Positions 3,060 through 20,576 are shown, counted from the stretch's first letter. The stretch is 64,000 nucleotides of DNA from Blastocatellia bacterium (GCA_035293105.1 DATDOV010000066.1:97967-161966), one strand, 5' to 3'. Numbers and translations are program-made. The notes: a model not told the origin generated them from the letters alone.

Positions 3060-3530
3060 TTGAGCGGTCCTCCTCTTTTGAACTGCTGTTGGAACTTCTC
3101 CTCAATGCTCAGATTCTGGTATGGTCTACCAGATTCGGAGACGATCTTCCAGCGCCGGCGTGAGCGAGGTGACAGATGTGAATGCCGCCCCCTGAAAACA
3201 CAATGCAAGCGAGAACCGGCAGCGCAGCGACAGGCCCGGAACGCTTGGGGCGCGGTCAAGCATGGGGCGGGACTTCGCCGCGTCGCGCGATGACTTCCAG
3301 GAGTAATGAGATGAGGCTGCCGGTCGACGCTCATGCTTTGATGTGGTACGTCGGCACGTCGATCAACATCACTTGCTCAGCCCGCCTCTCGTGCTGCCAT
3401 GACGATCCTTCCAATGATCTGCTCTTGAGCGCGGGCTCCATCTGGGGTATAGGCATTCAATGTTGGTGCTACGCCGGCGCCACACACGGCAATCTCCCGG
3501 CCGGCGGGTTGGGGTCGCTGGAGGATCAAC

Positions 3531-4403
3531 TTGAGAATATCAATCATCGGAGCAGGGCGAGTTGGCACGACGCTCGGCCGGCTCGCAAGACTCAACGGTT
3601 GTGAGATCGGAGACGTGGTATGCCGTTCTCGATCGTCCGCCGTGAACGCGGCTCGCTTCATCGGCGCCGGACGGCCCGCGTCGGCGGCGCGTGCGAAGCT
3701 GACTCGCGCCGACCTTCTTCTGATCGCAACGCCTGACAACGCAATCGCGGACGCCGTCGCGCTGATTCGTCGAAATGCGGCGGCAATCGGCTCGCCGATC
3801 GTTCTCCACACGAGCGGCGCACTTTCGAGCGACGTTCTCGGTCCACTGGCGCAACTGGGACTTGCGGTTGGATCCTGCCACCCGCTTCAGACATTCGAGA
3901 GCCCGTCGCGCGCGATTCGCCGCGTCGGTGGAAGCCACTTCTGTATCGAGGGCGACCGGCGCTCCCTTCGGGCTGCTCGGTTGTTGGTTCGCCGAATCGG
4001 GGCGCGGCACTTCACGATTCCGACCGAGGCCAAGGCGCTGTATCACGCCGCGGCCGTCCTGGCTTCGGGCGGGGTGGTCGCGTTGTTGAGCCTCAGCCTC
4101 GAGATGCTCTCCCTCTGCGGATTGAGCGAACGCGAAGCGAGACTGGTCTTGATGCCTCTCGTCGACGGCACAATCGCGAACGTCCGCACCCTCGGCCCGG
4201 CGCCCGCGCTGACCGGGCCGGTGCGGCGCGGAGACACCGATAGCATCGAGCGCAACATGCGAGCGGTAGCTGACGTTGATTCGCGATTGCTCGCGCTCTA
4301 TCGGCTTTTGGCTGAACGGGGTGCGGACCTGATGGAGCGCCAGGGTATGGACCGAGCCCACCTGACGAGACTGCGTCGGTTGCTGAAGAAGTTCCGCCCC
4401 TAA
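3531..4403 (+). CDS. Rossmann-fold NAD(P)-binding protein with a DUF2520-type C-terminal domain (ProC-like predicted oxidoreductase).
   Basis: TTG start preceded by GGAGG at 3521-3525. The N-terminal MRISIIGAGRVG dinucleotide-binding motif and overall length and layout match the DUF2520 family. Confidence 0.65.
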   Translation: MRISIIGAGRVGTTLGRLARLNGCEIGDVVCRSRSSAVNAARFIGAGRPASAARAKLTRADLLLIATPDNAIADAVALIRRNAAAIGSPIVLHTSGALSSDVLGPLAQLGLAVGSCHPLQTFESPSRAIRRVGGSHFCIEGDRRSLRAARLLVRRIGARHFTIPTEAKALYHAAAVLASGGVVALLSLSLEMLSLCGLSEREARLVLMPLVDGTIANVRTLGPAPALTGPVRRGDTDSIERNMRAVADVDSRLLALYRLLAERGADLMERQGMDRAHLTRLRRLLKKFRP

Positions 4404-4450
4404 GAGGCTGCTGAAAAAGCGATAACGGGCTTCCCCCAGAGGGTGGCGAC

Positions 4451-4477
4451 AATCCCACCAACTGCGTTGGTGGGATT
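4451..4477. repeat. Perfect 12-bp stem with a 3-nt loop (AATCCCACCAAC tgc GTTGGTGGGATT). It sits between two convergent 3' ends.
   Basis: Seen directly in the sequence. No downstream T-tract, so this is a REP-like or bidirectional structural element rather than a canonical intrinsic terminator. Confidence 0.5.
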
Positions 4478-4483
4478 GGGTGG

Positions 4484-5187
4484 CTACGGCCAGTCGCGGG
4501 CGGCGGCTTCGGCGGCTTCGAGTTCTTCCCGGCGGCGCCAGTAGCCGCACTGCTCGATGAGGGCGCGGGCGAGCTTCAACTCTTCTCGGTCGCGGAAGAG
4601 TCGGGCGCGGTGGAGGTGAACGTCGGCCATGTGAAGCCGCATCGGGCCGCGCTCGGCGATCTCCCAGGCTTCGTCGAGGTCTTCACGCGCGCCGTCCCGG
4701 TCGTTTTCGAGGAATCGCAACACGGCGCGGGACAGCAGGCCGCGAGGAACGTGATGCGTGGTGCCGGCACGGCGGAGACCGTCAACAGCGGCGGTGAGAT
4801 TGTCGCGCGCAGTTTGGAGCGCGGCCCCGTCTTGCACGTACGCCTCTTCGACATCATTGCTGCTGCGGCTGTCGATCGTGGCGCCTCGTTGCGCATCTTG
4901 CCGAGATCGACCGATTCTTCCGCGACGGGGACGATGTTGCAGCCCTCTTCAACGGCAGTCTCGAACTCGCGGCGCACCCAGTCCCCTTCGTCCGCGCAGC
5001 GATCCAACGCACCCGGCGGGGTGCGATGTTTATAGCGGTCGTCGAAGTGGTTCGCGCGCGCCCCAGCGGGGTGCAATGTCCGAGCGCCTACCGAGCATAG
5101 CCTTGAAATGACATCCGAGATTCTCTTCCAACGACGCATTGCACCCCGCTGGGGTGCGGATCGAATCACTCCCCATACTAGAAACAT
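4484..5187 (-). pseudogene. Remnant of a TIR-like plus TPR-like gene, split over two reading frames and truncated at the N-terminus.
   Basis: Frame A (about 4870-5060) encodes DEGDWVRREFETAVEEGCNIVPV, which resembles the C-terminal SxWCxxEl...iiPV motif region of bacterial TIR domains. Frame B (4484-4837) encodes helical repeat-like sequence. There is no intact N-terminal TIR core, and the 5' part overlaps the GC hairpin repeats. Confidence 0.3.
5009..5159. repeat. Cluster of three related GC hairpin repeats (GCACCCGGCGGGGTGC; CGCCCCAGCGGGGTGCAATG; CATTGCACCCCGCTGGGGTGCG). The last two form a 20-bp inverted repeat separated by about 58 bp.
   Basis: Direct reading: 5059-5078 is the exact reverse complement of 5137-5156, and a variant copy lies at 5009-5024. 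Confidence 0.55.
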
Positions 5188-5361
5188 TCCGCCCCCCTAG
5201 GGTGGAAACGTGGCGCCGAATTTTTTCTCATCTTCGTCAGTCGGCGGTATTCGCGTACCACTTTCACCCGAACAAACCTGTCAGCGTCTTCTCCCCTTGA
5301 TGTGACTCCGGCCGGATACTACTATGTGCGTCTCGTACATTTGATCCGGTAGGACGGACAT

Positions 5362-6339
5362 ATGCCGCACGTTAATACTGTAAAGGGACCTATTGATACC
5401 GCACAGCTCGGCGCGACGCTCATGCACGAACACGTGTTCGTCCTCGCGACCGAGATACTTCAAAACTACCCAGCCGAGTGGGGCGATGAAGAACAACGCA
5501 TCGCCGACGCTGTCGCGCGATTGAACGAGCTTAAGAGCCGCGGCGTCGACTCGATCGTCGACCTCACCGTCATCGGACTCGGCCGCTACATCCCCCGAAT
5601 TCAGCGCGTCGCCGCCGAAACCGATATCAACATCATCGTCGCGACCGGCGTCTACACCTACAACGACGTGCCGATGTATTTTCACTTTCGCGGACCCGGC
5701 ACCACACTCGGCGGGCCGGAGTTGATGGCCGACATGTTCGTCAAGGACATCGAAGAAGGCATCGCCGGAACCAGCGTCCGGGCCGCGATCCTCAAGTGCG
5801 CGACCGACGAGCCGGGCGTGACCCCGGGCGTCGAGCGAGTCCTTCGCGCGACCGCTCAAGCGCACCGGCGGACGGGCGTGCCGATCTCGACCCACACTCA
5901 CGCTCATACGCGGCGCGGGCTCGAGCAGCAACGCATCTTTCAAGAAGAGGGCGTCGACCTCTCGCGAGTGATCATCGGACATTCGGGCGACACGACCGAC
6001 ATCGACTATCTCGAAGAGCTGATCTCGAACGGCTCGTACATCGGCATGGACCGGTTCGGCATCGACGTGCTGCTTGGCTTCGAAGACCGCGTGAATACCG
6101 TAGCCCGGATGTGCGAGCGCGGCCACGCCTCGAAGATGGTCCTCTCGCACGACGCGGCGTGCTTCAATCACTGGCTGCCCGAAGCGATGGTGCCGGTGCT
6201 GCTGCCGAGGTGGAACTTCCTCCACATCCACAACGACGTGATTCCGGCGTTGAAGTCGCGCGGCGTCACCAACGAGCAGATCACGACGATGCTTGTGGAC
6301 AATCCGCGAAAGATTTTTGAGAGGCAGGGGGCGTACTGA
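5362..6339 (+). CDS. Phosphotriesterase family protein (PTE or PLL-type metal-dependent lactonase/hydrolase).
   Basis: The N-terminal LMHEHV HxH metal-binding motif and TIM-barrel amidohydrolase-like conservation are present. Length 325 aa. Confidence 0.8.
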   Translation: MPHVNTVKGPIDTAQLGATLMHEHVFVLATEILQNYPAEWGDEEQRIADAVARLNELKSRGVDSIVDLTVIGLGRYIPRIQRVAAETDINIIVATGVYTYNDVPMYFHFRGPGTTLGGPELMADMFVKDIEEGIAGTSVRAAILKCATDEPGVTPGVERVLRATAQAHRRTGVPISTHTHAHTRRGLEQQRIFQEEGVDLSRVIIGHSGDTTDIDYLEELISNGSYIGMDRFGIDVLLGFEDRVNTVARMCERGHASKMVLSHDAACFNHWLPEAMVPVLLPRWNFLHIHNDVIPALKSRGVTNEQITTMLVDNPRKIFERQGAY

Positions 6340-7841
6340 TGATCAAGCCGTTTGATCAATCCGGCATCACTCGTGGCGCGGACGGCGTAGCCCACTACGA
6401 CAATCGTCCGAACTCGCTGATCGAGATGCTCCGAGCGACGGTCGACAAGACTCCCGACAAAGAAGCGATCGTCGAGTTGGGCGGAGAGCGCGTGAGCTAC
6501 GAACAACTGTGGGACCGTTCGGCGCGCGTCGCAGGGGGGCTTGCGGCGCTCGGAGTCAATCGAGGTGATCGCGTGGCGATTCGGCTGGGAAACGGGCTCG
6601 ACTGGTGCGTCGCGTTTTTCGGCGGGTTGATGGCGGGCGCGGTCGTCGTTCCCGTCAACACGCGGTTCTCTGAGTCTGAAGTCGACTATGTGGTGACCGA
6701 TTCGGGCTCGCGGTTCACCTTCATGCCGGGCGAGCCGTTACCCGATGGCTCGCCGCTGGTCGTCGAAGACCTGTCGCGCGATGATCTCGCCGCAATCTTC
6801 TACACGAGCGGCACTACCGGTTTCCCGAAGGGCGCGATGATGACCCACGAAAACTTCCTGTCTAACACGGAGACCTGCCGTCGCGTCGTGAATCTCCCCA
6901 CCGACGGCCGGGTGAGGAACCTCGTGTCCGTGCCGCTGTTCCACGTAACGGGCTGCAACAGCCAGCTTCTGCCGACGTGTGAAACCGGAGATACGCTGGT
7001 CATCATGCCTGCGTTCGAAGTTCAGGCGTTCCTGAGCGCGATCCGCGATGAACGCATCAACCTGCTGACCTCGGTCCCGGCGGTCTACTGGCTGGCGATC
7101 AATCAGCCGAACTTTGCGGAGCTGGACACATCGGAGATCGGCTGGGTGAGCTATGGCGGCGCGCCGATCGCTCCGGAGCTTGTGGCGCGAATCATGGAGG
7201 CGTTTCCAAACGCGCGGTTGGGCAATGGCTTCGGTTTAACCGAGACCTCTTCGGTCGCGACGTTTCTTCCGCACGAGTACGCGCGCACGCGGCCGGAGTC
7301 GGTCGGGTTCGCCGCGCCGGTAGTCGATCTCGATTTGTTCGAGCCTGACCCGAGGACCGGCGCCGGCGAGTTGCTGGCGCGCGGCCCGAACGTGGTGAAG
7401 GGTTATTGGAACAAACCGGAGGCGACGGCGGAGACGTTTGTGAACGGCTGGCTTCACACGGGCGACATGGCCCGCATCGATGAGGACGGCTTCGTGCAGA
7501 TTGTGGATCGGATCAAGGACATGATCTGTCGGGGAGGAGAGAACGTCTACTGCGTCGAAGTCGAGAACGTGCTGGCCGCTCACCCGGCTGTGTTTGAAGT
7601 CGCGGTGCTCGGCGTGCCTGACGCGATGATGGGCGAGAAGGTGGGCGCGGTGATAGTGCCGCGTCCGGGCAAGGAGGCCGAGCCGACGGATATTCTGGCG
7701 TTCGCGCGCGAGCATCTGGCTGACTTCAAGGTCCCGCAGTACGTGGTGATCCGCTCGGAGCCGATTCCGCGCAACCCGGGTGGGAAGATGTTGAAGCCGA
7801 GATTGAGAAAAGAAGTTGAGTGGGGCAAACCGGTGCGGTGA
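6339..7841 (+). CDS. AMP-dependent synthetase/ligase (acyl-CoA synthetase).
   Basis: The YTSGTTGFPKGAMMTHENF AMP-binding signature is present, followed by a typical C-terminal GEKV...PRNPGGKMLK region. The start overlaps the upstream stop (TGATG). Confidence 0.85.
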   Translation: MIKPFDQSGITRGADGVAHYDNRPNSLIEMLRATVDKTPDKEAIVELGGERVSYEQLWDRSARVAGGLAALGVNRGDRVAIRLGNGLDWCVAFFGGLMAGAVVVPVNTRFSESEVDYVVTDSGSRFTFMPGEPLPDGSPLVVEDLSRDDLAAIFYTSGTTGFPKGAMMTHENFLSNTETCRRVVNLPTDGRVRNLVSVPLFHVTGCNSQLLPTCETGDTLVIMPAFEVQAFLSAIRDERINLLTSVPAVYWLAINQPNFAELDTSEIGWVSYGGAPIAPELVARIMEAFPNARLGNGFGLTETSSVATFLPHEYARTRPESVGFAAPVVDLDLFEPDPRTGAGELLARGPNVVKGYWNKPEATAETFVNGWLHTGDMARIDEDGFVQIVDRIKDMICRGGENVYCVEVENVLAAHPAVFEVAVLGVPDAMMGEKVGAVIVPRPGKEAEPTDILAFAREHLADFKVPQYVVIRSEPIPRNPGGKMLKPRLRKEVEWGKPVR

Positions 7842-8027
7842 ATGGCGTCGAGTATCTCCGTCGCACAACGTTTGGCTCGTGTCCTAATTTGAAGTCTTGC
7901 CCATAGCGGACTTTTGGTTGCGTTTTAAACGCGTGTTGCTCGCAGGCGCGAACGTGATAAGATGTGGCCCTACGCGCCGTAGCAACTTCCCGGCACGGAC
8001 ATGGAGTTAGATAAGCGGAAACCCTCT

Positions 8028-8056
8028 TTGCAAGCTGAACGAAGCATGCTATATAT
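8028..8056 (+). promoter_or_regulatory. Candidate sigma70-like promoter (TTGCAA, 16-nt spacer, TATATA) in the AT-rich leader of the island.
   Basis: Hexamers read directly from the sequence. The position is about 220 bp upstream of the 8275 ORF. Confidence 0.3.
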
Positions 8057-8274
8057 GGAATCAAATCTCGCACAGAGTAACGTCAAAGTATGCGTGTGCC
8101 TCTTTTGCTCAGTTCCGCCTGGGCTTGCGCTAGGCTCCGGCGTTCACCGCACCTCTGCGGAATTCTGAGCGATTCACGCTCATTTCGCCGGCGCTAGCAG
8201 CCCAACGAAGGTTCACAATTCGTTGCAAGCGCGGCAGGCAAGAAGTAAGGCCCGTCGACGAATCAGTAATCACC

Positions 8275-11200
8275 TTGGATGGCAAGCCTACGTTGAATCT
8301 AAAGGCCGAACTGCTGAAATACGGCGCTTCGAGCGACAGCATTCGTTCGCTTGGCGGACCCCCATCGTTGGAATTGCTCGACTACTTGGATTTGGTTGAA
8401 CGACCGGAGCCACGCCCGGGATTGTGGCCCCATTGTGTTGTGGAGAATCAGGGAAGACCGCTCCTGTTCGTTGTCGATGAAAGCGGCCTTGCGCTCCCCC
8501 CGGTGGAGTCACCAGCCGAGTTCGAGAACCTTCGGCGTTTGCTCGCTTGTCGGGGTGAGCGCTCCTACCTGGCCCGAGTGTTGCCAGGCGAATTGAAGGT
8601 CGTTCCGGTGGGCTTCGGGCCACTCCCCGGCTGGAAAACATACCGCCCTGGCACAGGCGACGCGACGACCTTTGTATCCAGACTGGCGTTTGGCGAGTAT
8701 GACGGCACCGGGGAACCGAGAGACACAGACTTTGTCTTCACCGAGATGTTTGAGCTGCTGACGGGAGTCGCCAATCGGCTGGTGGGAGCGATAAGCAAGC
8801 TTGACGTGCTATCGCTAATCGGCCGAGCCCTGTTCTTTCGCTTTTTGCGTGACCGCCACGTAGTAACCGACAGAGACACTCACGCGGTCGCACCAAGGGC
8901 AATCGAACTCCTCGCTTGTTTCGATAACGCGACGAACGCGGAAGCGACATGCCAATGGCTTGACCGCACTTTTAACGGCGATTTTCTGCCTCTAAGCGAT
9001 GGTGGCAGCGGACTATTCTTCGAGCGCGTAGAAGGGGAAACTAACGGCAGCGTCTTTTCAGAACTCAGCGCTATTCTCCGAAGCGAGAAGCCGGTCGGAA
9101 AGCAGAGCTATCAACTCCAGTTTGATTGGTCCGATTTCGACTTTGCGCACGTGCCGGTCGGTCTTCTGAGCCAGGTCTATGAAGCCTTCTGCTGGAAATG
9201 GGAGCCTCACCTTTCGAAGGAGACCAGCGTTCACTACACGCCGCGCGGCATAGCGGCAACGCTTGTGGGTGAGGTTTTCGACAAGCTGAGCGACGCCCAC
9301 AAGGCTCGCGTGCTGGACCCGGCATGCGGTGCGGGTATCTTCCTGGTACTGGCATTTCGTCGGCTCTATCGCGAGCATTGGAATGCGTTCGGAAAACGCC
9401 CAGATACAACGGATATTCGCAAAATCCTAGAAAGGCAACTCGTCGGATTCGACACCAGTGATTTTGCCCTCAGACTTGCCGCCCTTAGCCTTTACCTTAC
9501 CGCGATCGAACTGGACCCGAACCCAGTTCCACCTGAGAAGCTCAGTTTCAGAGCGCCTCTGCGCGATCGCGTACTGTTCAACTTCGGGCACCCAGACAAT
9601 GATCACGCTGCGGGATTCGAGATTGGTAGCCTCGGGCCAGAGGTGGACACGAGCTTTGATGGCGGATTTCATATAGTGTTGAGTAACCCGCCTTGGACTA
9701 CCTTACCTCCCGAGAAGAAGGAACTCGCGAAACAACTCGAAGAAGCCACCAGGTCTGTCATCCGTCGAAAGGGAGAGGTTGACATGGCGGGTGCTTACCA
9801 CAACCCCGACAACTCACCCGATCTCCCATTCATTTGGAAGGCAACGGAATGGTGTATGCCCGATGGACGTATCGCGATGGCATTGCCGGCCCGAATCCTG
9901 ATGAAGCAGGAGGAGACGCCGCGCTTTGCTCGTGAAATGCTGTTTCGTTTGGTAGAGGTGACTGGCATCATCAACGGTTCGAACGTTTCGGATACGAGAG
10001 TCTGGCGAAAGATGAATCAGCCGTTCATGCTTCTCTTTGCCAGGAACGGCCGGCCACGCAAGAGCGGAGTCCTTAGACTGATAACTCCTTACTACGACGC
10101 CCATCTCAATCGCCGGGGCGAAGTCAGGGTGGACTCAAAATCTTCCTATCCCCTCGAGGTGCAGGCCGCTCTGGATGAACCCTGGGTATGGAAGACACTT
10201 GCTATAGGCAGTTCTCTGGACGTTGACGTGGTGAGAAAGATAAAACGCTCGTCGGAAGTATCACTAAAGGATTACTGGGATGACCTCGAACTAGCGAGTG
10301 GGCAGGGTTATCAAATAGCCGATGACCAGGTTCAAAGCGATGCCGAGTTTCTGAAGGGCCTTCCGAACTTGGACTCGACCGATAAATTCCAGTTTGTCGT
10401 TGAGGCCGGAGAACTGAGTTCATTTGACCGAGAGACGCTTTGTTGGCCGCGAAAGGAGGAAATTTACGAACCTCCTCTGCTGCTCGCAAAGGCAGCACCT
10501 GGCAGTGACCGCAAATCAGGGCGGGCGCTGCTATGCCTAGAGAAGATCGCGTACAACGAAAGCTATTTTGGCTATTCCGCAGCCGGACATCCGGATGGGG
10601 AGTTTCTCATTCGCTATATACATCTATTCGCCCATAGTAACGTCTGGCTTTATTATGTGCTCATGACAAGCTCGGAGTTTGGCGCCGAACGACGCAAACT
10701 TCACAAGGCGGATTTGGATAGATGCCCGTTTCTTCTCCCCGAGCGACTGACTGCCGAACAGCGCCAAAAGGTGCTTCTTCTATCTGAAAGACTGGTCTCA
10801 AAAGACGTGACTGTGTTCGATGACATAGACACTTTCTTCTGCAGTCTATATGGCTTGGGCAAGCTCGAGATCGAGACCCTAAGGGACACTCTGGACGTCG
10901 GCCTGCCCTACAAGTCTGCGCGGCAACGCGCATGCGGACGTGCCAAACCCGAAGAAAGTGATAGCTTTTGTCGCCGAGTGGAGACGCTACTCCGGCCCTT
11001 TTTCAAGGTCATGGGGAACGAACCACGGGTCCGTGCGTGGGAGCCCAGTGACCCTTATGCAGCTTCTCACGCCCCGTTCGCCGTTATGGTAGTTAGCCGC
11101 ACTGATCGCACCGCACCGCTACCCGACGAGCTGTTTCGTACAACCATCCTGCCTCTTGCGAACGAAACTGGCGCGACCCGGATAATTCTGGAGCTAGACG

Positions 11201-11310
11201 GTGGGTTAGTAATTGGAATACTCAATCAGTATCGCTACTGGACACAAAGCAGAGCGAGGCTACTCGCGGGTGAATTGCTGGGCAATCACATGAGCGTATT
11301 CGAGACGTGA
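8275..11310 (+). CDS. Large 1011-aa protein with a gamma-class N6-adenine DNA methyltransferase core and long N- and C-terminal extensions. The architecture resembles Type IIG or IIL restriction-modification enzymes.
   Basis: Motif X-like VHYTPRGIAATLVGEVF, motif I RVLDPACGAGIFLVLAFRRL and motif IV VLSNPPW occur in gamma order. An MTase-like continuation (DGRIAMALPARIL) follows. The helical segment LIGRALFFRFLRDRHVV resembles the connector of MmeI-like enzymes. The gene has lower GC and a different codon flavour than neighbouring genes. Confidence 0.7.
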   Translation: MDGKPTLNLKAELLKYGASSDSIRSLGGPPSLELLDYLDLVERPEPRPGLWPHCVVENQGRPLLFVVDESGLALPPVESPAEFENLRRLLACRGERSYLARVLPGELKVVPVGFGPLPGWKTYRPGTGDATTFVSRLAFGEYDGTGEPRDTDFVFTEMFELLTGVANRLVGAISKLDVLSLIGRALFFRFLRDRHVVTDRDTHAVAPRAIELLACFDNATNAEATCQWLDRTFNGDFLPLSDGGSGLFFERVEGETNGSVFSELSAILRSEKPVGKQSYQLQFDWSDFDFAHVPVGLLSQVYEAFCWKWEPHLSKETSVHYTPRGIAATLVGEVFDKLSDAHKARVLDPACGAGIFLVLAFRRLYREHWNAFGKRPDTTDIRKILERQLVGFDTSDFALRLAALSLYLTAIELDPNPVPPEKLSFRAPLRDRVLFNFGHPDNDHAAGFEIGSLGPEVDTSFDGGFHIVLSNPPWTTLPPEKKELAKQLEEATRSVIRRKGEVDMAGAYHNPDNSPDLPFIWKATEWCMPDGRIAMALPARILMKQEETPRFAREMLFRLVEVTGIINGSNVSDTRVWRKMNQPFMLLFARNGRPRKSGVLRLITPYYDAHLNRRGEVRVDSKSSYPLEVQAALDEPWVWKTLAIGSSLDVDVVRKIKRSSEVSLKDYWDDLELASGQGYQIADDQVQSDAEFLKGLPNLDSTDKFQFVVEAGELSSFDRETLCWPRKEEIYEPPLLLAKAAPGSDRKSGRALLCLEKIAYNESYFGYSAAGHPDGEFLIRYIHLFAHSNVWLYYVLMTSSEFGAERRKLHKADLDRCPFLLPERLTAEQRQKVLLLSERLVSKDVTVFDDIDTFFCSLYGLGKLEIETLRDTLDVGLPYKSARQRACGRAKPEESDSFCRRVETLLRPFFKVMGNEPRVRAWEPSDPYAASHAPFAVMVVSRTDRTAPLPDELFRTTILPLANETGATRIILELDGGLVIGILNQYRYWTQSRARLLAGELLGNHMSVFET

Positions 11311-12029
11311 TTATGCCATATGGTTTTTACGATAAGCCAAGAGTCATAGAACTACCGCACCCGCCGGTAGCGCTCGCTGTCTTTCTCACCGTCGAGGCAG
11401 CGATGCTGGCCGCTTGGAATATCTTGCGTGTCAGACGCCGTCCAGGCTTCGACCTCTCGAATGCGGACGAAGACATCGTGACTCAGGAGCTTTATGAAGT
11501 CCTGTCCGACCAAGTGTTTGATAAGGGAGTCGTCGGCGGGTTTGACCGCGAACTTTTTACCGACATTAATCGCGAGTCGAAGTTTCGCAGTTACAACTAT
11601 GCCCATCTGGACAAGATGCCTGATCTGAACATTGGCCTTGTCGGCAGACAAGCTTTCTATCCGTCGCAGGACCGGATTTTCATGGAATGCAAGCCAGTAG
11701 ACTCAACGCACACCGTCGGTAAGCACTACTGCGGAATGGGCATTTTTCGGTTCGTCCGCGGGGAATATGCATGGACCATGACTAGCGTATTGATGATTGG
11801 CTACGTCCGCGAAGACTATAGGATAGTCCCAAAACTGACCGATGCCCTCAAGAGGGTGTCACACGAGATCAGTACTATCGGTGATCCGTATCAGTGCAGC
11901 AAATCCGAAGCCTCTTTGATCAGCGAGGCCGTCTACATTAGTCACCACGCTCGGAGGTTTGAGTACGTCGAAACTAGGTTGGCCGCTCCAGACATAACGA
12001 TCCGTCACCTCTGGCTACGTCGGGATTGA
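11307..12029 (+). CDS. Small 240-aa protein with a PD-(D/E)xK-like nuclease signature. It is translationally coupled to the upstream methyltransferase protein.
   Basis: The start overlaps the upstream stop (ATGA). The motif arrangement E(LFTDINRESKF) ... D(KMPDLNIG) ... ECK(IFMECKPVD) fits the E-(P)D-(D/E)xK pattern of restriction-endonuclease-like folds. It has the same low-GC character as the upstream gene. Confidence 0.45.
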   Translation: MIMPYGFYDKPRVIELPHPPVALAVFLTVEAAMLAAWNILRVRRRPGFDLSNADEDIVTQELYEVLSDQVFDKGVVGGFDRELFTDINRESKFRSYNYAHLDKMPDLNIGLVGRQAFYPSQDRIFMECKPVDSTHTVGKHYCGMGIFRFVRGEYAWTMTSVLMIGYVREDYRIVPKLTDALKRVSHEISTIGDPYQCSKSEASLISEAVYISHHARRFEYVETRLAAPDITIRHLWLRRD

Positions 12030-12225
12030 ATCACTGCCTGCTCGGAAAGTCTTCGTTTGTAATTTCCAGCCCAGACCAATCCTGGCACCGCGGGCTTGGT
12101 TAGAACATAGACGATCATCACAAGGTAATGACCCCACCTTTAGCCAGCGAGGAGCGCTTCTTCGCGGCCCGATTAATCATCCGTTGAATCAACTGCAACG
12201 AATTATTCCGCTACCAACTACTGAC

Positions 12226-15093
12226 TCATCGTCTTCCCGCCCACACACTGAAGACCGTCCCGCCGCCGGCTTGCGCGCCCCACTCGACCTCCGCTTCAAT
12301 CAAACTCGCGCGCGAGCGGATGTTCGCAAGCCCGCGCCCATTCGAAACACTCCTCGCCGCAGCATCAAATCCCCTGCCGTTGTCCTCAAGCCGAATCACC
12401 CAACGGCCCTCCGAGTCGCACGACACTTCCAACCGCACGTGCGTCGCCCCCGAGTGGCGGCACACGTTGCTGATCGCTTCCTGAACGATTCGATAGACCT
12501 GAATCTGGACGGCAGGCGCGAGTCGCAGCTTCTCTTCGATGGCTTCATCGCAAGCGAACTCGTACTCGAACCTTCCCTCCGCCGGCATGTGCGCGACCGC
12601 GTCCGCAACCGCCCACTCGAGCGCCGCCGCCAACCCGACATTCGCGAGCGCCGACGGGCTCAGGTCTTCGCATATCCGCCGAATCTCCGTCGATACCGCT
12701 TCGATCTCGTTGCGAAAGACCGCCGGCTCGATCCCGTCGCGTCGCTCGTCACCCTCGCGCGCCGGCAGTTGATCGGTCATCAACAGCAATCGTCTCAAGT
12801 CCGCCAGCGTCTGGTCGTGCAAGTCGCGCGCGATCCTCCGCCTCTCTGTCTCCGTTTCGTTGGCCAACTGCATTCGAGTCTCGGCAAGCTGCCGATTCGC
12901 ATCGCCGAGCGCGACGTTGCTTGCGGCCATCCGCTTGTTCTGACGGTGGCCCCACCACATCGCCACGAGCGCCAATCCGAGCAGCGCCGCAAGCGCCGTC
13001 GTCGTCCACGGAAAGGGCGCGCGCGCGACTCGAAACTCGAGCGCAAGCGGCTCTGAAACCACCAGGTCGTTGGTGAACGCGCGCGCTTCGATGCGATACC
13101 GGCCGGGCGTCAGGTTCTCGATCAGGAACTGCGAATCGCGCGCGAGCTTATGCCTGAGCGGCCTGCCCGCCGAATCCAGAAGGGAGAACGAATACTGAAA
13201 CTGCTCGGGGAATGTGCGGCCGCTCAGCGCCTCCACGTCGAGCGCGAGGCTGTTTTGCGGATAATCGAGATCGAGCCCCGCGCGAATCTCGTCGGGTTGG
13301 AACACCCGCTTGCTCATCACCCGCGCGGCTCGAAGCTGCGGAGCGACGCGGCCCGGAACGTAGCGCGCAACCCCGTGACTGGTCCCGACCCACAACACTT
13401 CTTCGCCCGATGCGCCGGTGGTGCTCAGAATCGCGAACGCATTCTCCGAAGGAAGACCCTGCTCCGTGTCGAGCCGCGCGACAATGGCTTCGCCTCCTTC
13501 GTCGAGCAGCACCTTGTAGAGCCCTCCGCCCGCGGTCACGCACCATGCCGCGTCGCCCTTAGCCGTCACTCTTCGCACGTCGTTGCCTTTAAGCGGCCAG
13601 AGCAACTCACCCGCGCGAAGCGCCGCAAGGCCTCGTGGCACCGCGACCCACAACACCCCGTCGCTCGTTCCGCCAATCGACCAGGCCGTCTCGTTGCTCA
13701 AACCGTCGAGCGCGGCGTCGCGTCGGACCTCTTTGCCGTCGAAGACGAGGACGCCGCCGTCCGCCGCGCCGATCCACAAGCGCTTGCCGTCGTCGGAGTG
13801 CAGGCTGACGAGCGAGTCATTCGCCCAGACGAGCGTGCGGCGATCTCGTTCCAGTCGCTCGAGACCTCGCCCGAAGCCCGCAATGTAAAACGAGCCTTGA
13901 AACTCGCAGATGGCCCGCACGCTTCCGGCGTCCCGGTCATCGGTTTTGACTCTTGTAAAGAGCCGTGAGCCCGCGAGCGCACCCGGCACTCCGCGAGCGC
14001 GCCGCTGCCGGGTCGTCGGCTTCGCGCCGGTGAATAGACCCGAGGCCGTACCGACGAGCAGATGTTCGGGTGCGTCTTCGGCAATCGAGTGAACCGTGTG
14101 GCCGCGTAGCTCAGGGACCTCAACCCAGCGATCGGCGCTCTTGTCGCGAACGAAGAGACCTCGATTCGTCCCGCACCATATCCATCCGTCTCGCGATTGA
14201 AAGAGCGCGCGGGCGAAGTTGCTCTCCGGACGATCGGAGACGGCTTCGATTCGAAGGCTGTTCGGATCGTAACGGCACGCGCCGCGATCGGTCCCGAACC
14301 AGATCACGCCTTCGCGATCGACGAAGACAGCGTAGATGTGATTCGACCGAAGCCCGCCTGCGGTGTTCTCAAACGTGAAGTGCTCGAGTTGGCGGGAGCC
14401 TCGATAGAGAAACGCGCCGTGACCATCTGAGACGATCCAGAGGTTGCCGTTTTGGTCGGGCGTCAGGGCCGTCACTTCGCGCGCGGGCACGGCCGGCGGT
14501 CGCATCGTCTCTCGGCTTTGGCCCGCCGCGCTTTGGTCGACGGTCGTCCGAGCGCCCGGTGACGGGCCTCGCGCGTCGGAGTCGGCAACAGGTTTGAATT
14601 CACCGTCGATCAGACGCACTGTGCCCGAGGCGGTTCCAATTCGGAGTGCACCGTCGTCGTCGATTTTGATAGCACGCACTCCGCCTAATGGAAGACCCTC
14701 AGCAGTGATCTTCTGAACACGGCGGCCGTCGTAGCGAGCGAGGCCGTTGTCGGTTCCGAACCAGATGAAGCCCTCGCGGTCCTGGGCTATGGCTCGCACG
14801 TGATCGGAGGGCAGGCCGTGGAACAACGTGACCGCGCCCCACTGATGGAGGTTTGTTGAGGGAGTTTGGAGCGCGGGCGTTTGCGCCGGAACTGCGCGCA
14901 GCGCGAGACACGTGAGCAGCACGCCGGCGAGGGAAGACCAGCCTTCAATCAAGCACAGTGCCCGCGCAGAAGGATAGGTCGCTGACTGGCCCAAGCTACT
15001 CGGTTTGCTTCTCACTTCGTGGAGTCTCATCACGACCCAAAATGTAGCCCGGAGCTCTTCATTAGGGTCCGAATGTTCGACGCTTGCGAACAC
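12226..15093 (-). CDS. Hybrid-architecture sensor histidine kinase. It has an extracytoplasmic two-component-regulator beta-propeller with Y_Y_Y-like repeats, a TM segment, a HisKA_3 dimerisation domain and a HATPase_c domain.
   Basis: Repeated WIGT/WFGT/WVGT propeller motifs, one TM helix (ALAALLGLALVAMWW), a NarL-class H-box (IARDLHDQTLADL) and a C-terminal ATPase G-boxes region. The true start is probably downstream of the ORF start. Confidence 0.8.
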   Translation of the reverse strand: MFASVEHSDPNEELRATFWVVMRLHEVRSKPSSLGQSATYPSARALCLIEGWSSLAGVLLTCLALRAVPAQTPALQTPSTNLHQWGAVTLFHGLPSDHVRAIAQDREGFIWFGTDNGLARYDGRRVQKITAEGLPLGGVRAIKIDDDGALRIGTASGTVRLIDGEFKPVADSDARGPSPGARTTVDQSAAGQSRETMRPPAVPAREVTALTPDQNGNLWIVSDGHGAFLYRGSRQLEHFTFENTAGGLRSNHIYAVFVDREGVIWFGTDRGACRYDPNSLRIEAVSDRPESNFARALFQSRDGWIWCGTNRGLFVRDKSADRWVEVPELRGHTVHSIAEDAPEHLLVGTASGLFTGAKPTTRQRRARGVPGALAGSRLFTRVKTDDRDAGSVRAICEFQGSFYIAGFGRGLERLERDRRTLVWANDSLVSLHSDDGKRLWIGAADGGVLVFDGKEVRRDAALDGLSNETAWSIGGTSDGVLWVAVPRGLAALRAGELLWPLKGNDVRRVTAKGDAAWCVTAGGGLYKVLLDEGGEAIVARLDTEQGLPSENAFAILSTTGASGEEVLWVGTSHGVARYVPGRVAPQLRAARVMSKRVFQPDEIRAGLDLDYPQNSLALDVEALSGRTFPEQFQYSFSLLDSAGRPLRHKLARDSQFLIENLTPGRYRIEARAFTNDLVVSEPLALEFRVARAPFPWTTTALAALLGLALVAMWWGHRQNKRMAASNVALGDANRQLAETRMQLANETETERRRIARDLHDQTLADLRRLLLMTDQLPAREGDERRDGIEPAVFRNEIEAVSTEIRRICEDLSPSALANVGLAAALEWAVADAVAHMPAEGRFEYEFACDEAIEEKLRLAPAVQIQVYRIVQEAISNVCRHSGATHVRLEVSCDSEGRWVIRLEDNGRGFDAAARSVSNGRGLANIRSRASLIEAEVEWGAQAGGGTVFSVWAGRR

Positions 15094-15100
15094 GTGACTT

Positions 15101-15880
15101 CTAATTCTCTATTCCACTCTTGCCGCGCGGGGCTTGCTCCTCCAGGTACCTCTTCCGGTCGCGGTCGATCCAACCCTCCAGCTCCTTCGCGGCCTTCTCA
15201 AGCTCGTCGCTGTTCAACAATCCGCGCCGCAGCGCTTCGAAGAACGCCCTCGTGCGAATGTTATAGGCCAGCTTGTCGTAAGCTTCGTTGGGCGTTCCTT
15301 CGGGCGATGACGCGAACAACTTCTCATACAAGGTCGCCAGCCGGCTCTCGACCCCACGAAGGCTCAGGCTGCACTTGCGCGCGATGGCCCAGTTCGACAG
15401 CCCAAGCGCGAGGTAGTACAACGCCTCGGCTTCGAACTCGGTCAGCAGCGGCCGCTTGAACGAGTCTTTGAACGCCGGGTCGATCATATCGGCGCCGTCT
15501 TCGAGGACCGCGGCGACGAAGCGCAGGAAGCGAGTCTCGGGGTTGTTCTTGTCGATGAAACCGTAAGCGGGCTGGGGCTGGACCGACTTGATGATCTTGC
15601 GAATCTCGTTGATGTAGATCTCGTGAGGGAACTGGGTCCAGAAGATTATTCGCGCGGCCGGAAAGCCTCGCCATATCGCGCGCGCGGCTTTGACACCCGA
15701 GAGCTTCGGCATCTGGATGTCGAGCACGCAGAGCTCCGGCCGGTGACGCAGCGCAAGCTCGACCGTCGTTTCGCCGTCGCCCGCTTCGATGACCGGTGCG
15801 CGCGAGGGGAACTCGCGTTCGAGCAGTTCGCGCAGGTAGCTGCGTTGAGCGACGTTGTCTTCGGCGATTAGTATGGACAT
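15101..15880 (-). CDS. Response regulator with a CheY-like receiver and a LuxR/FixJ-type HTH, plus an extended C-terminal tail.
   Basis: Receiver consensus (LIAEDN ... LDIQMPK), HTH (EALYYLALGLSNWAIARKCSLSLRGVESRLATLYEKL), about 50 extra C-terminal residues. Confidence 0.8.
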   Translation of the reverse strand: MSILIAEDNVAQRSYLRELLEREFPSRAPVIEAGDGETTVELALRHRPELCVLDIQMPKLSGVKAARAIWRGFPAARIIFWTQFPHEIYINEIRKIIKSVQPQPAYGFIDKNNPETRFLRFVAAVLEDGADMIDPAFKDSFKRPLLTEFEAEALYYLALGLSNWAIARKCSLSLRGVESRLATLYEKLFASSPEGTPNEAYDKLAYNIRTRAFFEALRRGLLNSDELEKAAKELEGWIDRDRKRYLEEQAPRGKSGIEN

Positions 15881-16076
15881 ATTCCCATCGTACCGGTTTG
15901 TTGCCTTGGCAGATGAGTCCGGCGGCTCTGATGCTATGACCGCTTGCGCGGTTGGTCAATGTGGTTACCCTCAGTCAACCGTAGCGTGTTAGCCCGCCGC
16001 TCGCGCCGGGACCTCCCTCCTCGATCCTGTTGGCGCCCGCGTTACCGATTCCATCCCCGCCGACAATAATGTCCGC

Positions 16077-17663
16077 GTGCTGGCGCCGACAGCGAACTTC
16101 ATCCGCAGCCACGCGAGACTCTCGCTCCTAATCGCGAGCCTGGCGATCGCACCCTGCGCATGGCTTGTGTGGGCTGCGCACTCGCGGCCGCGAGCGTGGG
16201 CCGTCCGTGAAGTCCCGATAGCCTTCTGGGCGTGGCAATCCAACGCGCCCGCGCAAGCAGACGTAGAGCGGGCCCTCCATCAGACCGGCGCGCGAACCTT
16301 GTTCATGCGAGCCGGCCAGCTCGACTACGAGCGCGGAACGTGCCGTCTTATCCGCGCAGCGAGCGGGCCGTTCCCGCGCGGCGTCGAGTTGCACCTCGTC
16401 TACAATGCGACGCCCGACTTGCTCGCCGCCTTCGAGACCATCGACATTCAAGCGCTCGTTTCTGCGATTGCCGAAACCTACGCGGCGGATTCTGAGCGCG
16501 CCGCTAGGGGGCGCGCCGAGGTCGCCGGGCTTCAACTCGACCTCGACGTTCCCACGCGGCTTCTCCCGAAGTATGAAGGGCTCTTGCGAATGTTGCGCGA
16601 GCGGCTGCCCGAAGGAATCAAGCTTTCGATCACCGGGCTGCCGACCTGGATGAGATCACTTGCGCTGGCAACAGTGCTTGAAGCGGTCGATTTCTGGGTG
16701 CCTCAGTGTTACGGCGCGACGATCCCCGAACAGCTCGAGCGGGCCACACCGATCGCTTCGCTCGCAGCGGTCGCCGATGCGATCGATGGCGCGCGCGGGC
16801 TCGGCCGGCCTTTCTACGCGGGGCTTGCGGCTTATGGCTACGCGATCCACTACTCGCCGGACGGCCGCCGAATTCAAGTGAGCGGGACGTTGGATCCTGA
16901 ACTTGTCGCAAACAGCACGAGCCTCGAGCTTGTTGAGCGCCGGCGGTTCGGCTCGGGTGAGAACTCTTCGAGCGAGTGGCGGCTCGTGTACCGGGCGAGG
17001 GAGGCATGCGTGTTGGGCGGCCTATTCCTGCGCGAGGGCGAGTGGCTGATGCTGGATTTGCCGACTGCCGAATCGTTGCGAGCAGCAGCGCGGACGGTGC
17101 GCGAGCGGGCGGGTCCGCGCTTGCTCGGAGTTTGTGTTTTCCGTCTGCCGTCGGCGAGCGACAAGACCACGCTGACGATCGAAGAGGTCGCCGATGCTCT
17201 GTTGGACCGGCCGCCAAGTGTCGCGCTGGAGGTGACGGCCAAACTCGCGCCACTCTCTCAATCGGCGACACCTGGCGAGCGGACGCGTGTCGAGATCGCC
17301 TGCGTGAACACCGGGTCGACCGGTGCGCTCTGTGGCGAGGATGCATTGATGGTCGAAGCGCAGGTTCCGGCCGGCCGGCTGCGCACAATCGAGCTTAACG
17401 GCTTCGGTTCTTCGGAGACGCTATTCGCGCCGGCAGGAATAGACGGCCGCTCGGACGAAGTCGTTGCGTGCGGGGTCCGGAGAGCGAACCTGGTCAGATT
17501 GATGAAGCGCACGTGGCGACCCGGCGAGACGGCGTTTGTTGTTCTCGAATTCAGCGGGGAGCCGCCGGACGCAACCTCGCTGACGATCAGCGTCCGACGT
17601 GATGAACGAACCGCGTGGCAGGAGACCCGGACGGTTGCGATCGAGAGGGAGAACCGCTGGTGA
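16077..17663 (+). CDS. Membrane-anchored hypothetical protein. It may be DUF3142-like or glycoside-hydrolase-like; the family assignment is uncertain.
   Basis: N-terminal TM helix, then a 480-aa soluble region. It is translationally coupled to the downstream TPR gene. Confidence 0.45.
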   Translation: MLAPTANFIRSHARLSLLIASLAIAPCAWLVWAAHSRPRAWAVREVPIAFWAWQSNAPAQADVERALHQTGARTLFMRAGQLDYERGTCRLIRAASGPFPRGVELHLVYNATPDLLAAFETIDIQALVSAIAETYAADSERAARGRAEVAGLQLDLDVPTRLLPKYEGLLRMLRERLPEGIKLSITGLPTWMRSLALATVLEAVDFWVPQCYGATIPEQLERATPIASLAAVADAIDGARGLGRPFYAGLAAYGYAIHYSPDGRRIQVSGTLDPELVANSTSLELVERRRFGSGENSSSEWRLVYRAREACVLGGLFLREGEWLMLDLPTAESLRAAARTVRERAGPRLLGVCVFRLPSASDKTTLTIEEVADALLDRPPSVALEVTAKLAPLSQSATPGERTRVEIACVNTGSTGALCGEDALMVEAQVPAGRLRTIELNGFGSSETLFAPAGIDGRSDEVVACGVRRANLVRLMKRTWRPGETAFVVLEFSGEPPDATSLTISVRRDERTAWQETRTVAIERENRW

Positions 17664-20566
17664 ATAGCATCTCGATACGAGGAAAGTTCTTTCGCCTGCT
17701 GACCCGCGCTGTTTTGTGGTCGGCTGGTATTGCGGCTACCGGGCTCGCGTGCGGGTGGTTGGGCGGAGCGGGAGAGCGATCGGTGCGGTTCAACTGGTAT
17801 GCGAAATCCGGACGCGACTTCGCTCTGCTGCCGCCTCTGTCAAAGAGCTTCGTCATAGAGACGCCACGCGTCAATCGGATCGGCGACTATGGCGACATAT
17901 GGGATCGAGCAAAACAGTTGCTCGATGAAATCGGCAAGTTATGGGACGACGCGCTGGAGGCGGAGGAGCGCGGCGACCTGAACGCGGCTCGCAATCTGCT
18001 GAGCAAGTATTTGGAGCGCACCGAGCCCCCGCGACAGACACTTCGGGTTAACGGCGACCTGTACTCTCACTATGAGCCGCTCGACATCAAAGACCGGCGG
18101 GAGCGAAGGAACTCCGCTCAAGACCAACTCGACGCAATGGGCAACCTGGTCAGAGGCGCGCGCCCCGCGGCAGTGAGCCAGTACCTCCAAGCCAGAGGCG
18201 CTTATGACTCCGACGCCCCGGACGAGGAAGTGACGAAGACGCTCGACGCGATTCGAGACCCCAGCTTGCGCGACAACGTGGCCTATCTGCGCGCGGCGCT
18301 CCCCTATCGCGCCGACAAGTTTGAAGAGGCCGCTGATGCTTTCACCGCTCTTGCGCACACATATCCGGGCAGCGAAAAGCGAGAGGCGGCCCTGTTGATG
18401 GCCGCGCTCGCAACCATGAAGCAGAGCGAGGTCTATGACGCGCCTTATGTGCGCAACCGAGACGATCGGGGACAGCCGCACACCGCGAAGGACGACGCAT
18501 GGTACGCGGCGCGGACCGGGTTTCAGAGACTGATGCGCGAGTACCCGCGCGGGCGATACTTCAACGATGCGCGGGGGTGGCTTGCTTATTTGTCCTACCG
18601 GGCGGGCGACTGGCCCGACGCGATGGTCGATTACTACAGGATGCTTGGCGACGCGGGGGACGCGAGCGCGCGGCTGGAAGCAACTTTCTCTCTGTACATC
18701 GTTCGCAGCGAGGTCACGGACTCCGAGATGCGCGAGGTCGAAGCGCGGCTCGAGCGAGAGCCGGCGGCGGCACTCGCTTACTGCTATCACGAGATGTACA
18801 ACTTCGCGACGGGCTACTGCGAGTACCCATACGATTACCCCGAAGACCGCAGCGAGTTCCGCGTTCGCAGCACCGAGTCACGCAGGCGAATCGCGGCGTT
18901 CGCGAACCGGCTGGCCGCTCGCGCCTCGGTCAACGCGGCGTTCGTGCTGCGAGCGGCGATGGCCAATCTGGAGGTCGAGGATTACGCGGCGGCATCGCGG
19001 CTTGCGAGGCGCGCATTGCAGCTAGGGTCAACCGGTGAGCAGAGAGCTCGGGCATTGTGGGTCGAAGGAGTCGCCGATCACTTGCGAGGCGAATACCGCC
19101 TGGCTCGCGACGCGATGAAGCGGCTCATCGCCGAAAAGCCGGCTGTTGATCTCCGGGAACGGGCCGAGCGCTACCTCCCAATCATCCTCGAAGACATGGG
19201 CGACATCGAGGGCGCGCTCGACCAGTACCTTGCGCTCAATTACCACGTCGACGCCGCATACTTCATTGATGTTCTGATGACGCCCGAGCAGTTGGCGCAT
19301 TTCATCGAGGGTCATCCGATGAGCCCGAAGCGCGATGAGCTGCTTTACGCGCTCGGCGTTCGGTACCTGCGCGACAAGCGATGGAATGAAGCGCGAGCCA
19401 CGTTGGCGAAGGCGCGGACGACGGCTCGCGGCGTCGATGATGATTACAATGACGAGCACAGTCACCTCTATCCGATGTATGGCTCCGAGCCCGAGACGCT
19501 TAAGGAGGACCCTGCTGATCCGGCAGTTCCCGGCGTCAGACCGCAGTGGGTCGAGCAGGATTTGAGGACCGCGAACGACCTCGAACGCCTGGCGCGCGAC
19601 GTAGACCAAGCGGAAGGCCACGAAGCGAAGGCCGAGGCGCTCTATCAACTGGCGAGTTATCAGTATCAGGGCAATCTGCTGTTCTACAATTCTGCGGCAT
19701 GGCGGTGGGAACGGCACGATCATCTGTACGACTTGAACAACAGCGGCTTGTTTCGTCAGCCGGGCGAAGCACAACTACTCTTTCGGAACATGCAATCACA
19801 CGATGCGGCGGCGCGCTCGCTGGAGGATTTCCTCGAGGTCGTGCGGCGCTTCCCGAACACTCGGGCGGCGCGTGATGCGCTGTACACGGCGGCGGTTTGC
19901 CACGAGCGGCTCTCCGAGTACAACAACTACTGGCGAGACATCTACTCGAGGGGCGGTTACGCGGGCAGCCGGCTTGTCACGTACAAAGACGTGAGAGCGG
20001 CCTATCCCGATTATCAACTGCCGCGAGGGACATTCGGTTGGCAGCCGGCTACGCGGACGGTCAACGGCGGTCCGGGTTGGAAGCCGCCGCCAAAGCCTAT
20101 CCCACGGACGCCGCGGTGGAAGCGTTACACTAGCGTCCTCGTAGTGACATTGTTGGACATGCGGCAGCGGCTCAACACGGCGGCACTAGAGATCGCGAAG
20201 CTGTGTGTGTACCTGAGCTGGTTGCAGTTCCAGTGTTTCATCATTGGGATGGCGGGGTATGCCTGGTATCTGTGCTTCAAGGCGAAGCGCCGGCTGATGG
20301 CGGAGATGTGCGAGTATGGAGGGTGGCCTCGCGCGCTGATAGGGCCGGCGCCGCAGGAGTTGTCGCCGCGAATGCCGATTCAGAGCTACCGCGATTTTCT
20401 GAGGCACGAGGCGCGTGACGAGTGGATTCGGAATGCGCGGCGTTGGCTTCAAAACACTACGTGCCTGTTGTTGCACACGAGGGCCGGGCCGGTACTCGTG
20501 ACAAACTTCATGCTGTACGGCTCAGCGCTGGTGTTTCTGGTTATGCTACTCAGTGTGATCGTATGA
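17660..20566 (+). CDS. Large TPR-like repeat protein with a C-terminal membrane anchor.
   Basis: The GTG start overlaps the upstream stop (GTGA). Helical-repeat-rich sequence throughout. C-terminal hydrophobic helices (VYLSWLQFQCFIIGMAGYAWYL; VLVTNFMLYGSALVFLVMLLSVIV). Confidence 0.55.
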   Translation: MNSISIRGKFFRLLTRAVLWSAGIAATGLACGWLGGAGERSVRFNWYAKSGRDFALLPPLSKSFVIETPRVNRIGDYGDIWDRAKQLLDEIGKLWDDALEAEERGDLNAARNLLSKYLERTEPPRQTLRVNGDLYSHYEPLDIKDRRERRNSAQDQLDAMGNLVRGARPAAVSQYLQARGAYDSDAPDEEVTKTLDAIRDPSLRDNVAYLRAALPYRADKFEEAADAFTALAHTYPGSEKREAALLMAALATMKQSEVYDAPYVRNRDDRGQPHTAKDDAWYAARTGFQRLMREYPRGRYFNDARGWLAYLSYRAGDWPDAMVDYYRMLGDAGDASARLEATFSLYIVRSEVTDSEMREVEARLEREPAAALAYCYHEMYNFATGYCEYPYDYPEDRSEFRVRSTESRRRIAAFANRLAARASVNAAFVLRAAMANLEVEDYAAASRLARRALQLGSTGEQRARALWVEGVADHLRGEYRLARDAMKRLIAEKPAVDLRERAERYLPIILEDMGDIEGALDQYLALNYHVDAAYFIDVLMTPEQLAHFIEGHPMSPKRDELLYALGVRYLRDKRWNEARATLAKARTTARGVDDDYNDEHSHLYPMYGSEPETLKEDPADPAVPGVRPQWVEQDLRTANDLERLARDVDQAEGHEAKAEALYQLASYQYQGNLLFYNSAAWRWERHDHLYDLNNSGLFRQPGEAQLLFRNMQSHDAAARSLEDFLEVVRRFPNTRAARDALYTAAVCHERLSEYNNYWRDIYSRGGYAGSRLVTYKDVRAAYPDYQLPRGTFGWQPATRTVNGGPGWKPPPKPIPRTPRWKRYTSVLVVTLLDMRQRLNTAALEIAKLCVYLSWLQFQCFIIGMAGYAWYLCFKAKRRLMAEMCEYGGWPRALIGPAPQELSPRMPIQSYRDFLRHEARDEWIRNARRWLQNTTCLLLHTRAGPVLVTNFMLYGSALVFLVMLLSVIV

Positions 20567-20576
20567 GGGCGAAGAC

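Follow-up and report, generated by a model that had tools for sequence, protein, structure and literature searches.

A pair of adjacent genes in a low-GC island

We analysed a 64,000-nucleotide (nt) stretch of DNA from a Blastocatellia bacterium (GCA_035293105.1, DATDOV010000066.1:97967-161966), here called the window, which contains two adjacent plus-strand genes that we consider, on balance, to be a horizontally acquired restriction-modification module of type IIG ancestry, with the smaller protein as its active nuclease subunit. The upstream gene (8275-11310) was assigned by Pfam and PADLOC to a large subunit of 1011 amino acids (aa), a type IIG-like gamma-class N6-adenine methyltransferase with a presumed C-terminal target-recognition region, and the downstream gene (11313-12029) encodes a stand-alone 238-aa protein with a PD-(D/E)xK endonuclease fold. 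Overall GC content and GC content at third codon positions (GC3) delimited a low-GC two-gene island (7842-12225) flanked by an acyl-CoA-ligase-like housekeeping gene on one side and a sensor-kinase gene on the other. A sequence-only reading of the window had claimed that the small gene shares the low GC of the methyltransferase gene, and this held: GC content was 0.524 in the nuclease gene and 0.552 in the methyltransferase gene, versus 0.617 and 0.622 in the flanks. Similarly, GC3 was 0.60-0.615 in the module genes versus 0.79-0.81 in the two upstream neighbours, a foreign base composition. As to signs of insertion, the island showed no tRNA genes, no integrase and no convincing flanking direct or inverted repeats; within the window it contained no sigma-70-like promoter, and its terminator-like sites were not above chance.

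The small gene had been read as a 240-codon open reading frame (ORF) at 11307-12029 (plus strand) that overlapped the methyltransferase gene by ATGA. This ORF is present, and the peptides quoted from it (ELFTDINRESKF, DKMPDLNIG and IFMECKPVD) all lie inside it, but the actual 4-nt overlap is GTGA (GTG at 11307-11309, TGA at 11308-11310), and GTG 11307 is the sole start codon that overlaps the methyltransferase stop. A database entry of identical sequence (P0001) has a length of 238 aa, and every homologue opens with M-x-x-G-F-Y; we therefore took the gene as 11313-12029, with the GTG at 11307 as an alternative start; the ATG at 11313, 2 nt past the methyltransferase stop, is the probable true start. 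The junction (11305-11315, plus strand) accordingly reads ACG TGA tt ATG, within the wider sequence ...GAG ACG TGA tt ATG CCA..., an arrangement compatible with translational coupling. Tight coupling to the methyltransferase gene was borne out as a family trait, as the stop-to-start distance was -4 to +8 nt in 82 of 84 distinct methyltransferase-nuclease junctions, including +3 nt in 32, an ATGA overlap in 15 and TGATG/TAATG in 11.

We evaluated the constancy of this pairing at 80 genome loci that were fetched via the nuclease, 78 of which had upstream DNA (L051 and L055 start right at the edge of their contigs). At 75 of the 78, the gene directly upstream, on the same strand, encoded a full-length homologue of the large methyltransferase; the three exceptions were L049 and L059, where the methyltransferase was truncated, and L062, whose 2.1 kb of available sequence yielded none. 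In the reverse check, methyltransferase orthologues chosen without reference to the nuclease had a Pfam-less gene of 238-241 aa immediately downstream in three of three cases. This near-obligate pairing in both directions supported the earlier suggestion that the small protein is the nuclease subunit of a methyltransferase-target-recognition-domain (TRD) protein, and the linkage of a nuclease gene to a methyltransferase gene with intact catalytic motifs is that of a type II system. The flanking genes differed at every locus examined, so that the two genes move together as one unit, and inspection of at least 12 neighbourhoods gave no third gene conserved around the pair. Small ORFs overlapping the methyltransferase start (at L004, L089 and L090) were rejected as a third gene, being not conserved elsewhere and absent from the window, as were XRE/HTH genes, which were clade-specific.

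Predicted fold and putative catalytic residues of the small protein

The AlphaFold2 model of the small protein, built from 38 sequences, had a mean predicted local distance difference test score (pLDDT) of 92 and a predicted template modelling score (pTM) of 0.89. Its elements (helix 53-69, strand 82-87, strand 105-109, strand 121-129, helix 135-148 and strand 158-165) form the alpha-beta-beta-beta-alpha-beta core that is the hallmark of the PD-(D/E)xK superfamily, so that the fold proposed by the sequence-only reading was recovered by structure prediction. In the model, E53 opens helix 53-69, D104 lies just ahead of beta2 (105-109), and E125-C-K127 lies within beta3 (121-129); the predicted geometry is the canonical one for PD-(D/E)xK enzymes, with beta2 opened by an acidic residue and (D/E)xK inside beta3, both conserved in the family.

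Variability of these residues in homologues had been named as a possible objection to the fold, and we therefore give their conservation in an alignment of 239 full-length family members with identities down to 28%. D104, E125 and K127 were conserved in 100% of these homologues, E53 and P103 in 99%, and C126 in 97%, so that the catalytic residues were kept at 99-100%; Y139, G143, Y152 and R214 were further invariant residues. On the plus strand of the window, the codon of E53, at the start of core helix alpha1, is at 11469-11471, those of the 'PD' pair P103-D104, directly before beta2, at 11619-11624, and those of E125-C126-K127, the '(D/E)xK' of beta3, at 11685-11693. The conserved upstream glutamate had previously been placed in the peptide ELFTDINRE, but E88 in that peptide is only 59% conserved. 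The bare pattern PD-x10-30-[DE]xK arose in 7.4% of shuffles of the small protein and so carries little weight; the E...PD...ECK pattern that had first drawn attention to the ORF is not significant alone, but it is backed by residue conservation and by the predicted fold.

From these residues and the modelled fold we infer that the small protein is a Mg-dependent endonuclease. It could instead have no catalytic activity and serve the methyltransferase in a structural or regulatory role, such as that of a specificity or assembly factor, since inactive nuclease-fold proteins exist (Sen15 and Sen54, both of which turned up in our analysis). However, dead folds lose such residues, as the N-terminal domain of the large subunit shows (see below), and all four catalytic residues here are retained across 239 sequences, which makes a dead partner extremely improbable.

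Several additional cysteine and histidine residues were strongly conserved in the family alignment: C126 as above, H212 and H232 (99% each), H133 and C140 (about 81%), and C195 (66%, with 28% gaps). Their codons, on the plus strand, are at 11688-11690 (C126), 11709-11711 (H133), 11730-11732 (C140), 11895-11897 (C195), 11946-11948 (H212) and 12006-12008 (H232). It is possible that this set forms a structural metal site in the small nuclease.

The family is without a name in existing collections. Profile searches of the 238-aa protein against Pfam, NCBIfam, PADLOC and PHROGs gave no match, nor did Pfam scans of 38 family members; a search of the Protein Data Bank (PDB) with the family profile returned chance-level sequence matches only, and Foldseek found no significant match to the small nuclease in the PDB. 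A word-indexed search retrieved 189 relatives, every one labelled hypothetical and none with Pfam domains, and an exhaustive search retrieved 467 representatives at 50% identity. All of the 150 matches listed of these 467 were stand-alone proteins, and full-length members were about 215-290 aa long. The Pfam/NCBIfam scan and the AlphaFold2 model indicated a single domain with no extra reader domain.

The fold resembles that of the type IIP enzymes BamHI, OkrAI, BglII and BstYI, but sequence identity to these was only 7-11%, with no Foldseek match and no significant profile match to BamHI-like endonuclease sequence families (Pfam and others). The third motif residue of the small protein is the canonical lysine; it is Glu in BamHI and Gln in BglII.

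The large subunit and a model for the pair

The large subunit has the domain order of type IIG enzymes (nuclease, helical connector, gamma-class methyltransferase, TRD), the TRD part being presumed. Pfam N6_Mtase, MmeI_Mtase and Eco57I matched residues ~297-565, the PADLOC REase_MTase_IIG profiles covered the protein only from residue ~173 on, and full-length orthologues were 54-90% identical. Motif I, the S-adenosylmethionine-binding site (V346-L-D-P-A-C-G-A-G354; 9310-9336, plus strand), has D348, P349, A350 and G352 invariant in orthologues, and motif IV, the catalytic motif of N6-adenine methyltransferases (N471-P-P-W474; 9685-9696, plus strand), was invariant in 31 orthologues. Ahead of these lie an N-terminal domain of ~150 residues (8275-8724, plus strand) with a restriction-endonuclease-like fold and a decayed motif (P52-H53 ... 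E69-S70-G71), and a helical connector domain (residues ~153-290; 8731-9144, plus strand) of the kind known from HsdM and type IIG enzymes. Residues 1-300, when modelled (pLDDT 82), comprised an alpha/beta domain (strands 54-58, 61-68, 98-103 and 106-111; helix 80-91) and, after it, a helical bundle at 153-268. A Pfam scan of the large subunit found no MmeI_N, MmeI_hel, MmeI_TRD or MmeI_C domain, and a PDB sequence search with a profile of the methyltransferase N-terminus returned nothing.

On a Burkholderia glumae plasmid (NZ_CP100242; L090), the annotation divides the large subunit between two overlapping genes (3748-5394 and 5391-6737), one for a 548-aa N-6 DNA methylase and one for a hypothetical protein of 448 aa, and the nuclease homologue comes next. 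Either a frameshift or a natural separation of the methyltransferase from the C-terminal recognition region would account for this.

The type IIG/IIL enzymes BpuSI, MmeI, DrdV and Eco57I share with the large subunit both this domain order and the PD-x15-E-x spacing. BpuSI consists of a nuclease domain (6-174), a connector (175-289) and a methyltransferase domain (293-579), with a PD-x15-ExK site (PMC3185434), and the counterpart of this site in the N-terminal domain of the large subunit is P52-D53-x15-E69-x-71. Among 70 orthologues, D53 was present in 81% and E69 in 57%, and position 71 was Arg in 63% and Lys in 4%; the copy in the window has H53 and G71 (P-H ... E-S-G). The variation at positions 53, 69 and 71 indicates that the canonical N-domain site is not under purifying selection, and from the aligned sequences its decay is in sharp contrast to the perfectly conserved site of the small protein. 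Unlike in type IIG enzymes, in which one chain cuts and methylates through a functional fused PD-(D/E)xK motif, the fused catalytic triad here is eroded and a separate, unrelated nuclease gene is attached. The idea that the small gene supplies a 'missing' nuclease therefore stood in part: a separate nuclease is indeed paired with the methyltransferase, but the methyltransferase retains a nuclease-fold domain of its own, with only its canonical motif decayed. We also considered that the small gene might be a detached copy of this fused domain, but ruled this out, as hhalign of the N-domain against the small nuclease family gave a probability of 0.1% and no detectable relation.

We asked how far a second active site in the large subunit would fit these data. 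D39, E57, R93 and, likewise, G105 are invariant in its N-terminal domain, and the domain could be catalytic via a non-canonical D39/E57 site, with each protein nicking one strand as in the heterodimeric nucleases BspD6I, BtsI and BsrDI. However, residue 59 is variable (Q, D, S, R, H, L), the domain has no conserved lysine, the positions equivalent to the type IIG PD-x15-ExK site are eroded, and the four invariant residues may equally be structural or interface residues, making two active sites quite unlikely. In the heterodimeric type IIS/IIT enzymes BspD6I, BtsI, BsrDI and BbvCI, the large subunit itself acts as a nickase and methylation is left to separate proteins, whereas here the large subunit is the methyltransferase itself and its nuclease motif is decayed. 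By analogy, the nearest functional counterpart of the module with a single active nuclease subunit would be a BspD6I-like heterodimer with a small catalytic subunit, set on a type IIG scaffold.

Two degenerate loci bear on whether the small nuclease acts by itself. At L059 the methyltransferase gene (2975-5168 and 5206-6714) is interrupted by IS/transposase genes, and at L049 (4497-6720) its N-terminal half, with both catalytic motifs, is gone; at both loci the nuclease ORF is intact and keeps PD and ECK. An autonomous type II endonuclease without its methyltransferase is expected to be lethal. The persistence of intact nuclease ORFs beside broken methyltransferases tentatively suggests, from only two loci, that targeting or activation of the nuclease depends on the large subunit, in analogy to the R subunits of type I and type III systems. 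Such dependence on a methyltransferase/recognition subunit would also be shared with the type IIB systems BcgI and BsaXI; a cell that lost the modification subunit would then cease to restrict DNA but survive. In contrast to type I, type III and ISP enzymes, neither protein of the pair has a helicase/ATPase motor, and in contrast to type IIB there is no separate S subunit, only two genes.

These loci also bear on a type IIP-like arrangement, in which the 238-aa protein would be an autonomous, sequence-specific homodimeric endonuclease, as are BamHI and BglII, and the 1011-aa protein its cognate methyltransferase, with no complex between them. The likeness of fold speaks for it. The intact nuclease ORFs at L049 and L059 should kill their hosts under this arrangement, however, and they hint that the small nuclease, unlike the BamHI class, is apparently not autonomous. 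In that class, the partner is a small independent methyltransferase, not a type IIG-like protein of 1000 aa. A complete type IIG scaffold with vestigial nuclease domain and helical connector would be odd for a plain methyltransferase, and the translational coupling is strict across 8 phyla. We regard a type IIP-like arrangement as rather unlikely.

The sequence-only reading had also offered a type IV-like or abortive-infection effector, for which we found nothing in favour. A methylation-dependent enzyme of type IV kind that was permanently linked to a functioning adenine methyltransferase would turn against the cell that carries it, and the small protein is paired with just such an apparently active methyltransferase and lacks a reader domain. 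For an abortive-infection or toxin effector restrained by the large protein, no sensor, ATPase or signalling gene was conserved nearby, and the gene pairing pattern is that of restriction-modification. Together with a nuclease of DNA repair or recombination, we judge these possibilities to be very unlikely. The proposed use of adenine methylation to tell self from non-self is a likeness to BREX, MANTIS (Gao_RL), MADS and DISARM, and around its methyltransferase motifs the large subunit weakly matched the PglX, MAD2 and DrmMI profiles. Membership of these systems was rejected, as the scores were 24-46 bits against cut-offs of 400-900 (MAD2, 46 versus 720) and the partners PglZ, BrxC/L, AAA+ ATPase and helicase-nuclease were not conserved near the pair (MANTIS composition as in bioRxiv 10.64898/2026.09.23.753747).

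In the model that we prefer, that of a module with one active nuclease subunit, the large protein would recognise DNA via its C-terminal region and methylate adenine through NPPW, marking self DNA, while its N-terminal nuclease-fold domain has lost the canonical PD-x15-ExK site. The 238-aa protein would cut as a Mg-dependent PD-(D/E)xK endonuclease through E53, D104, E125 and K127. Translational coupling would let it be made in step (stoichiometrically) with the large subunit, and it most likely acts bound to that subunit, cutting unmethylated DNA at or near the recognised site, presumably in defence; it may possibly dock on the vestigial nuclease domain.

Several observations weigh against this model. 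The C-terminal region of the large subunit matches no TRD family, so that its recognition role is assumed, and the invariant D39, E57 and R93 could yet form a non-canonical active site. L049 and L059 come from metagenome bins and may reflect assembly artefacts or very recent events. Finally, the best structural matches of the small protein are BamHI-like autonomous sequence-specific dimers, which fits a type IIP-like arrangement equally well.

Distribution, regulators and neighbouring genes

Relatives of the small nuclease were found in 281 of 185,579 species genomes, and the family occurs in NC10, Acidobacteriota, Planctomycetota, Verrucomicrobiota, Nitrospirota, Desulfobacterota, Pseudomonadota and Abditibacteriota. 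No homologue of the module was found in the phage genomes searched. The module is plasmid-borne in Pseudomonas frederiksbergensis, Burkholderia glumae, Agrobacterium tumefaciens and Allorhizobium pseudoryzae, where its neighbours include AbiE, toxin-antitoxin, SIR2, HNH, integrase and IS66 genes, a mobile and defence-related setting that favours the module model.

At many loci a putative regulator gene precedes the pair. In one clade of the module, LexA-like proteins of ~210 aa (LexA_DNA_bind plus Peptidase_S24) were encoded directly upstream, overlapping the methyltransferase start, at no fewer than 12 loci (L066, L069, L071, L072 (2322-2963), L075, L076, L077, L081, L084, L086, L087 and L088; also L052, 2032-2817), mostly from Desulfobacterota and Acidobacteriota; the window is without such a gene. 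The LexA-like gene suggests that the system is controlled via DNA damage or self-cleavage. Other loci had a WYL gene (L061, 2011-2817; L073, 2046-2912), a MerR gene (L068, 2178-2606), an XRE gene (L097, 2600-2890; L098, 2423-2713), an HTH_26 gene (L003, 6638-6904) or small zinc-ribbon ORFs (L012, L065 and L082) upstream. These regulators look like interchangeable controller genes, and swappable upstream regulators are typical for mobile restriction-modification and defence operons.

A more far-reaching proposal is that the family constitutes an unrecognised and widespread two-subunit 'split type IIG' system, in which a type IIG enzyme lost its own catalytic site and the vestigial domain is now a docking and activation platform for an unrelated BamHI-like nuclease acting in trans, and in which, in several clades, LexA-like or WYL regulators would let DNA damage or infection induce restriction. 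We put this forward tentatively, as possible but somewhat doubtful. Our literature search found no described split type IIG system; REBASE was outside this search, and a prior listing as a putative R gene is possible. If the split arrangement is true, it would document how, in evolution, a restriction-modification enzyme of fused design can hand cleavage over to a nuclease that it has recruited. It could also be a source of enzymes with new cleavage geometry, and several hundred methyltransferases now taken for orphans would have their annotation corrected. The pair would still be a restriction-modification system, and the conceptual surprise is moderate. The nuclease family being nameless in Pfam, NCBIfam, PADLOC and PHROGs, defence-system annotators now see only an orphan or 'type IIG-like' methyltransferase at such loci, which affects at least 281 species of soil and water bacteria as well as Pseudomonas, Burkholderia and Agrobacterium plasmids.

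In the window, 433 nt of non-coding spacer (7842-8274) with a GC content of 0.54 lie upstream of the methyltransferase gene. This spacer contained no conserved small ORF and no convincing regulator gene; a 55-aa ORF within it (8001-8168) had no Pfam match. The arms of an inverted repeat (7832-7847 and 8138-8153; 16 nt, 88% complementary) enclose most of the spacer.

Directly downstream of the island, on the minus strand, 12226-15880 encodes two proteins: a sensor histidine kinase of 955 aa, which has a large repeat region at its N-terminus, and a response-regulator-like protein of 259 aa. These genes have host-like GC and appear unrelated to the module.

On the metagenome contig of L003, a Tn7-like module (TnsA, TnsB, TniB/TnsC and TniQ/TnsD; 14732-20723) lies ~4 kb downstream of the pair, which may be cargo of this Tn7-like element.
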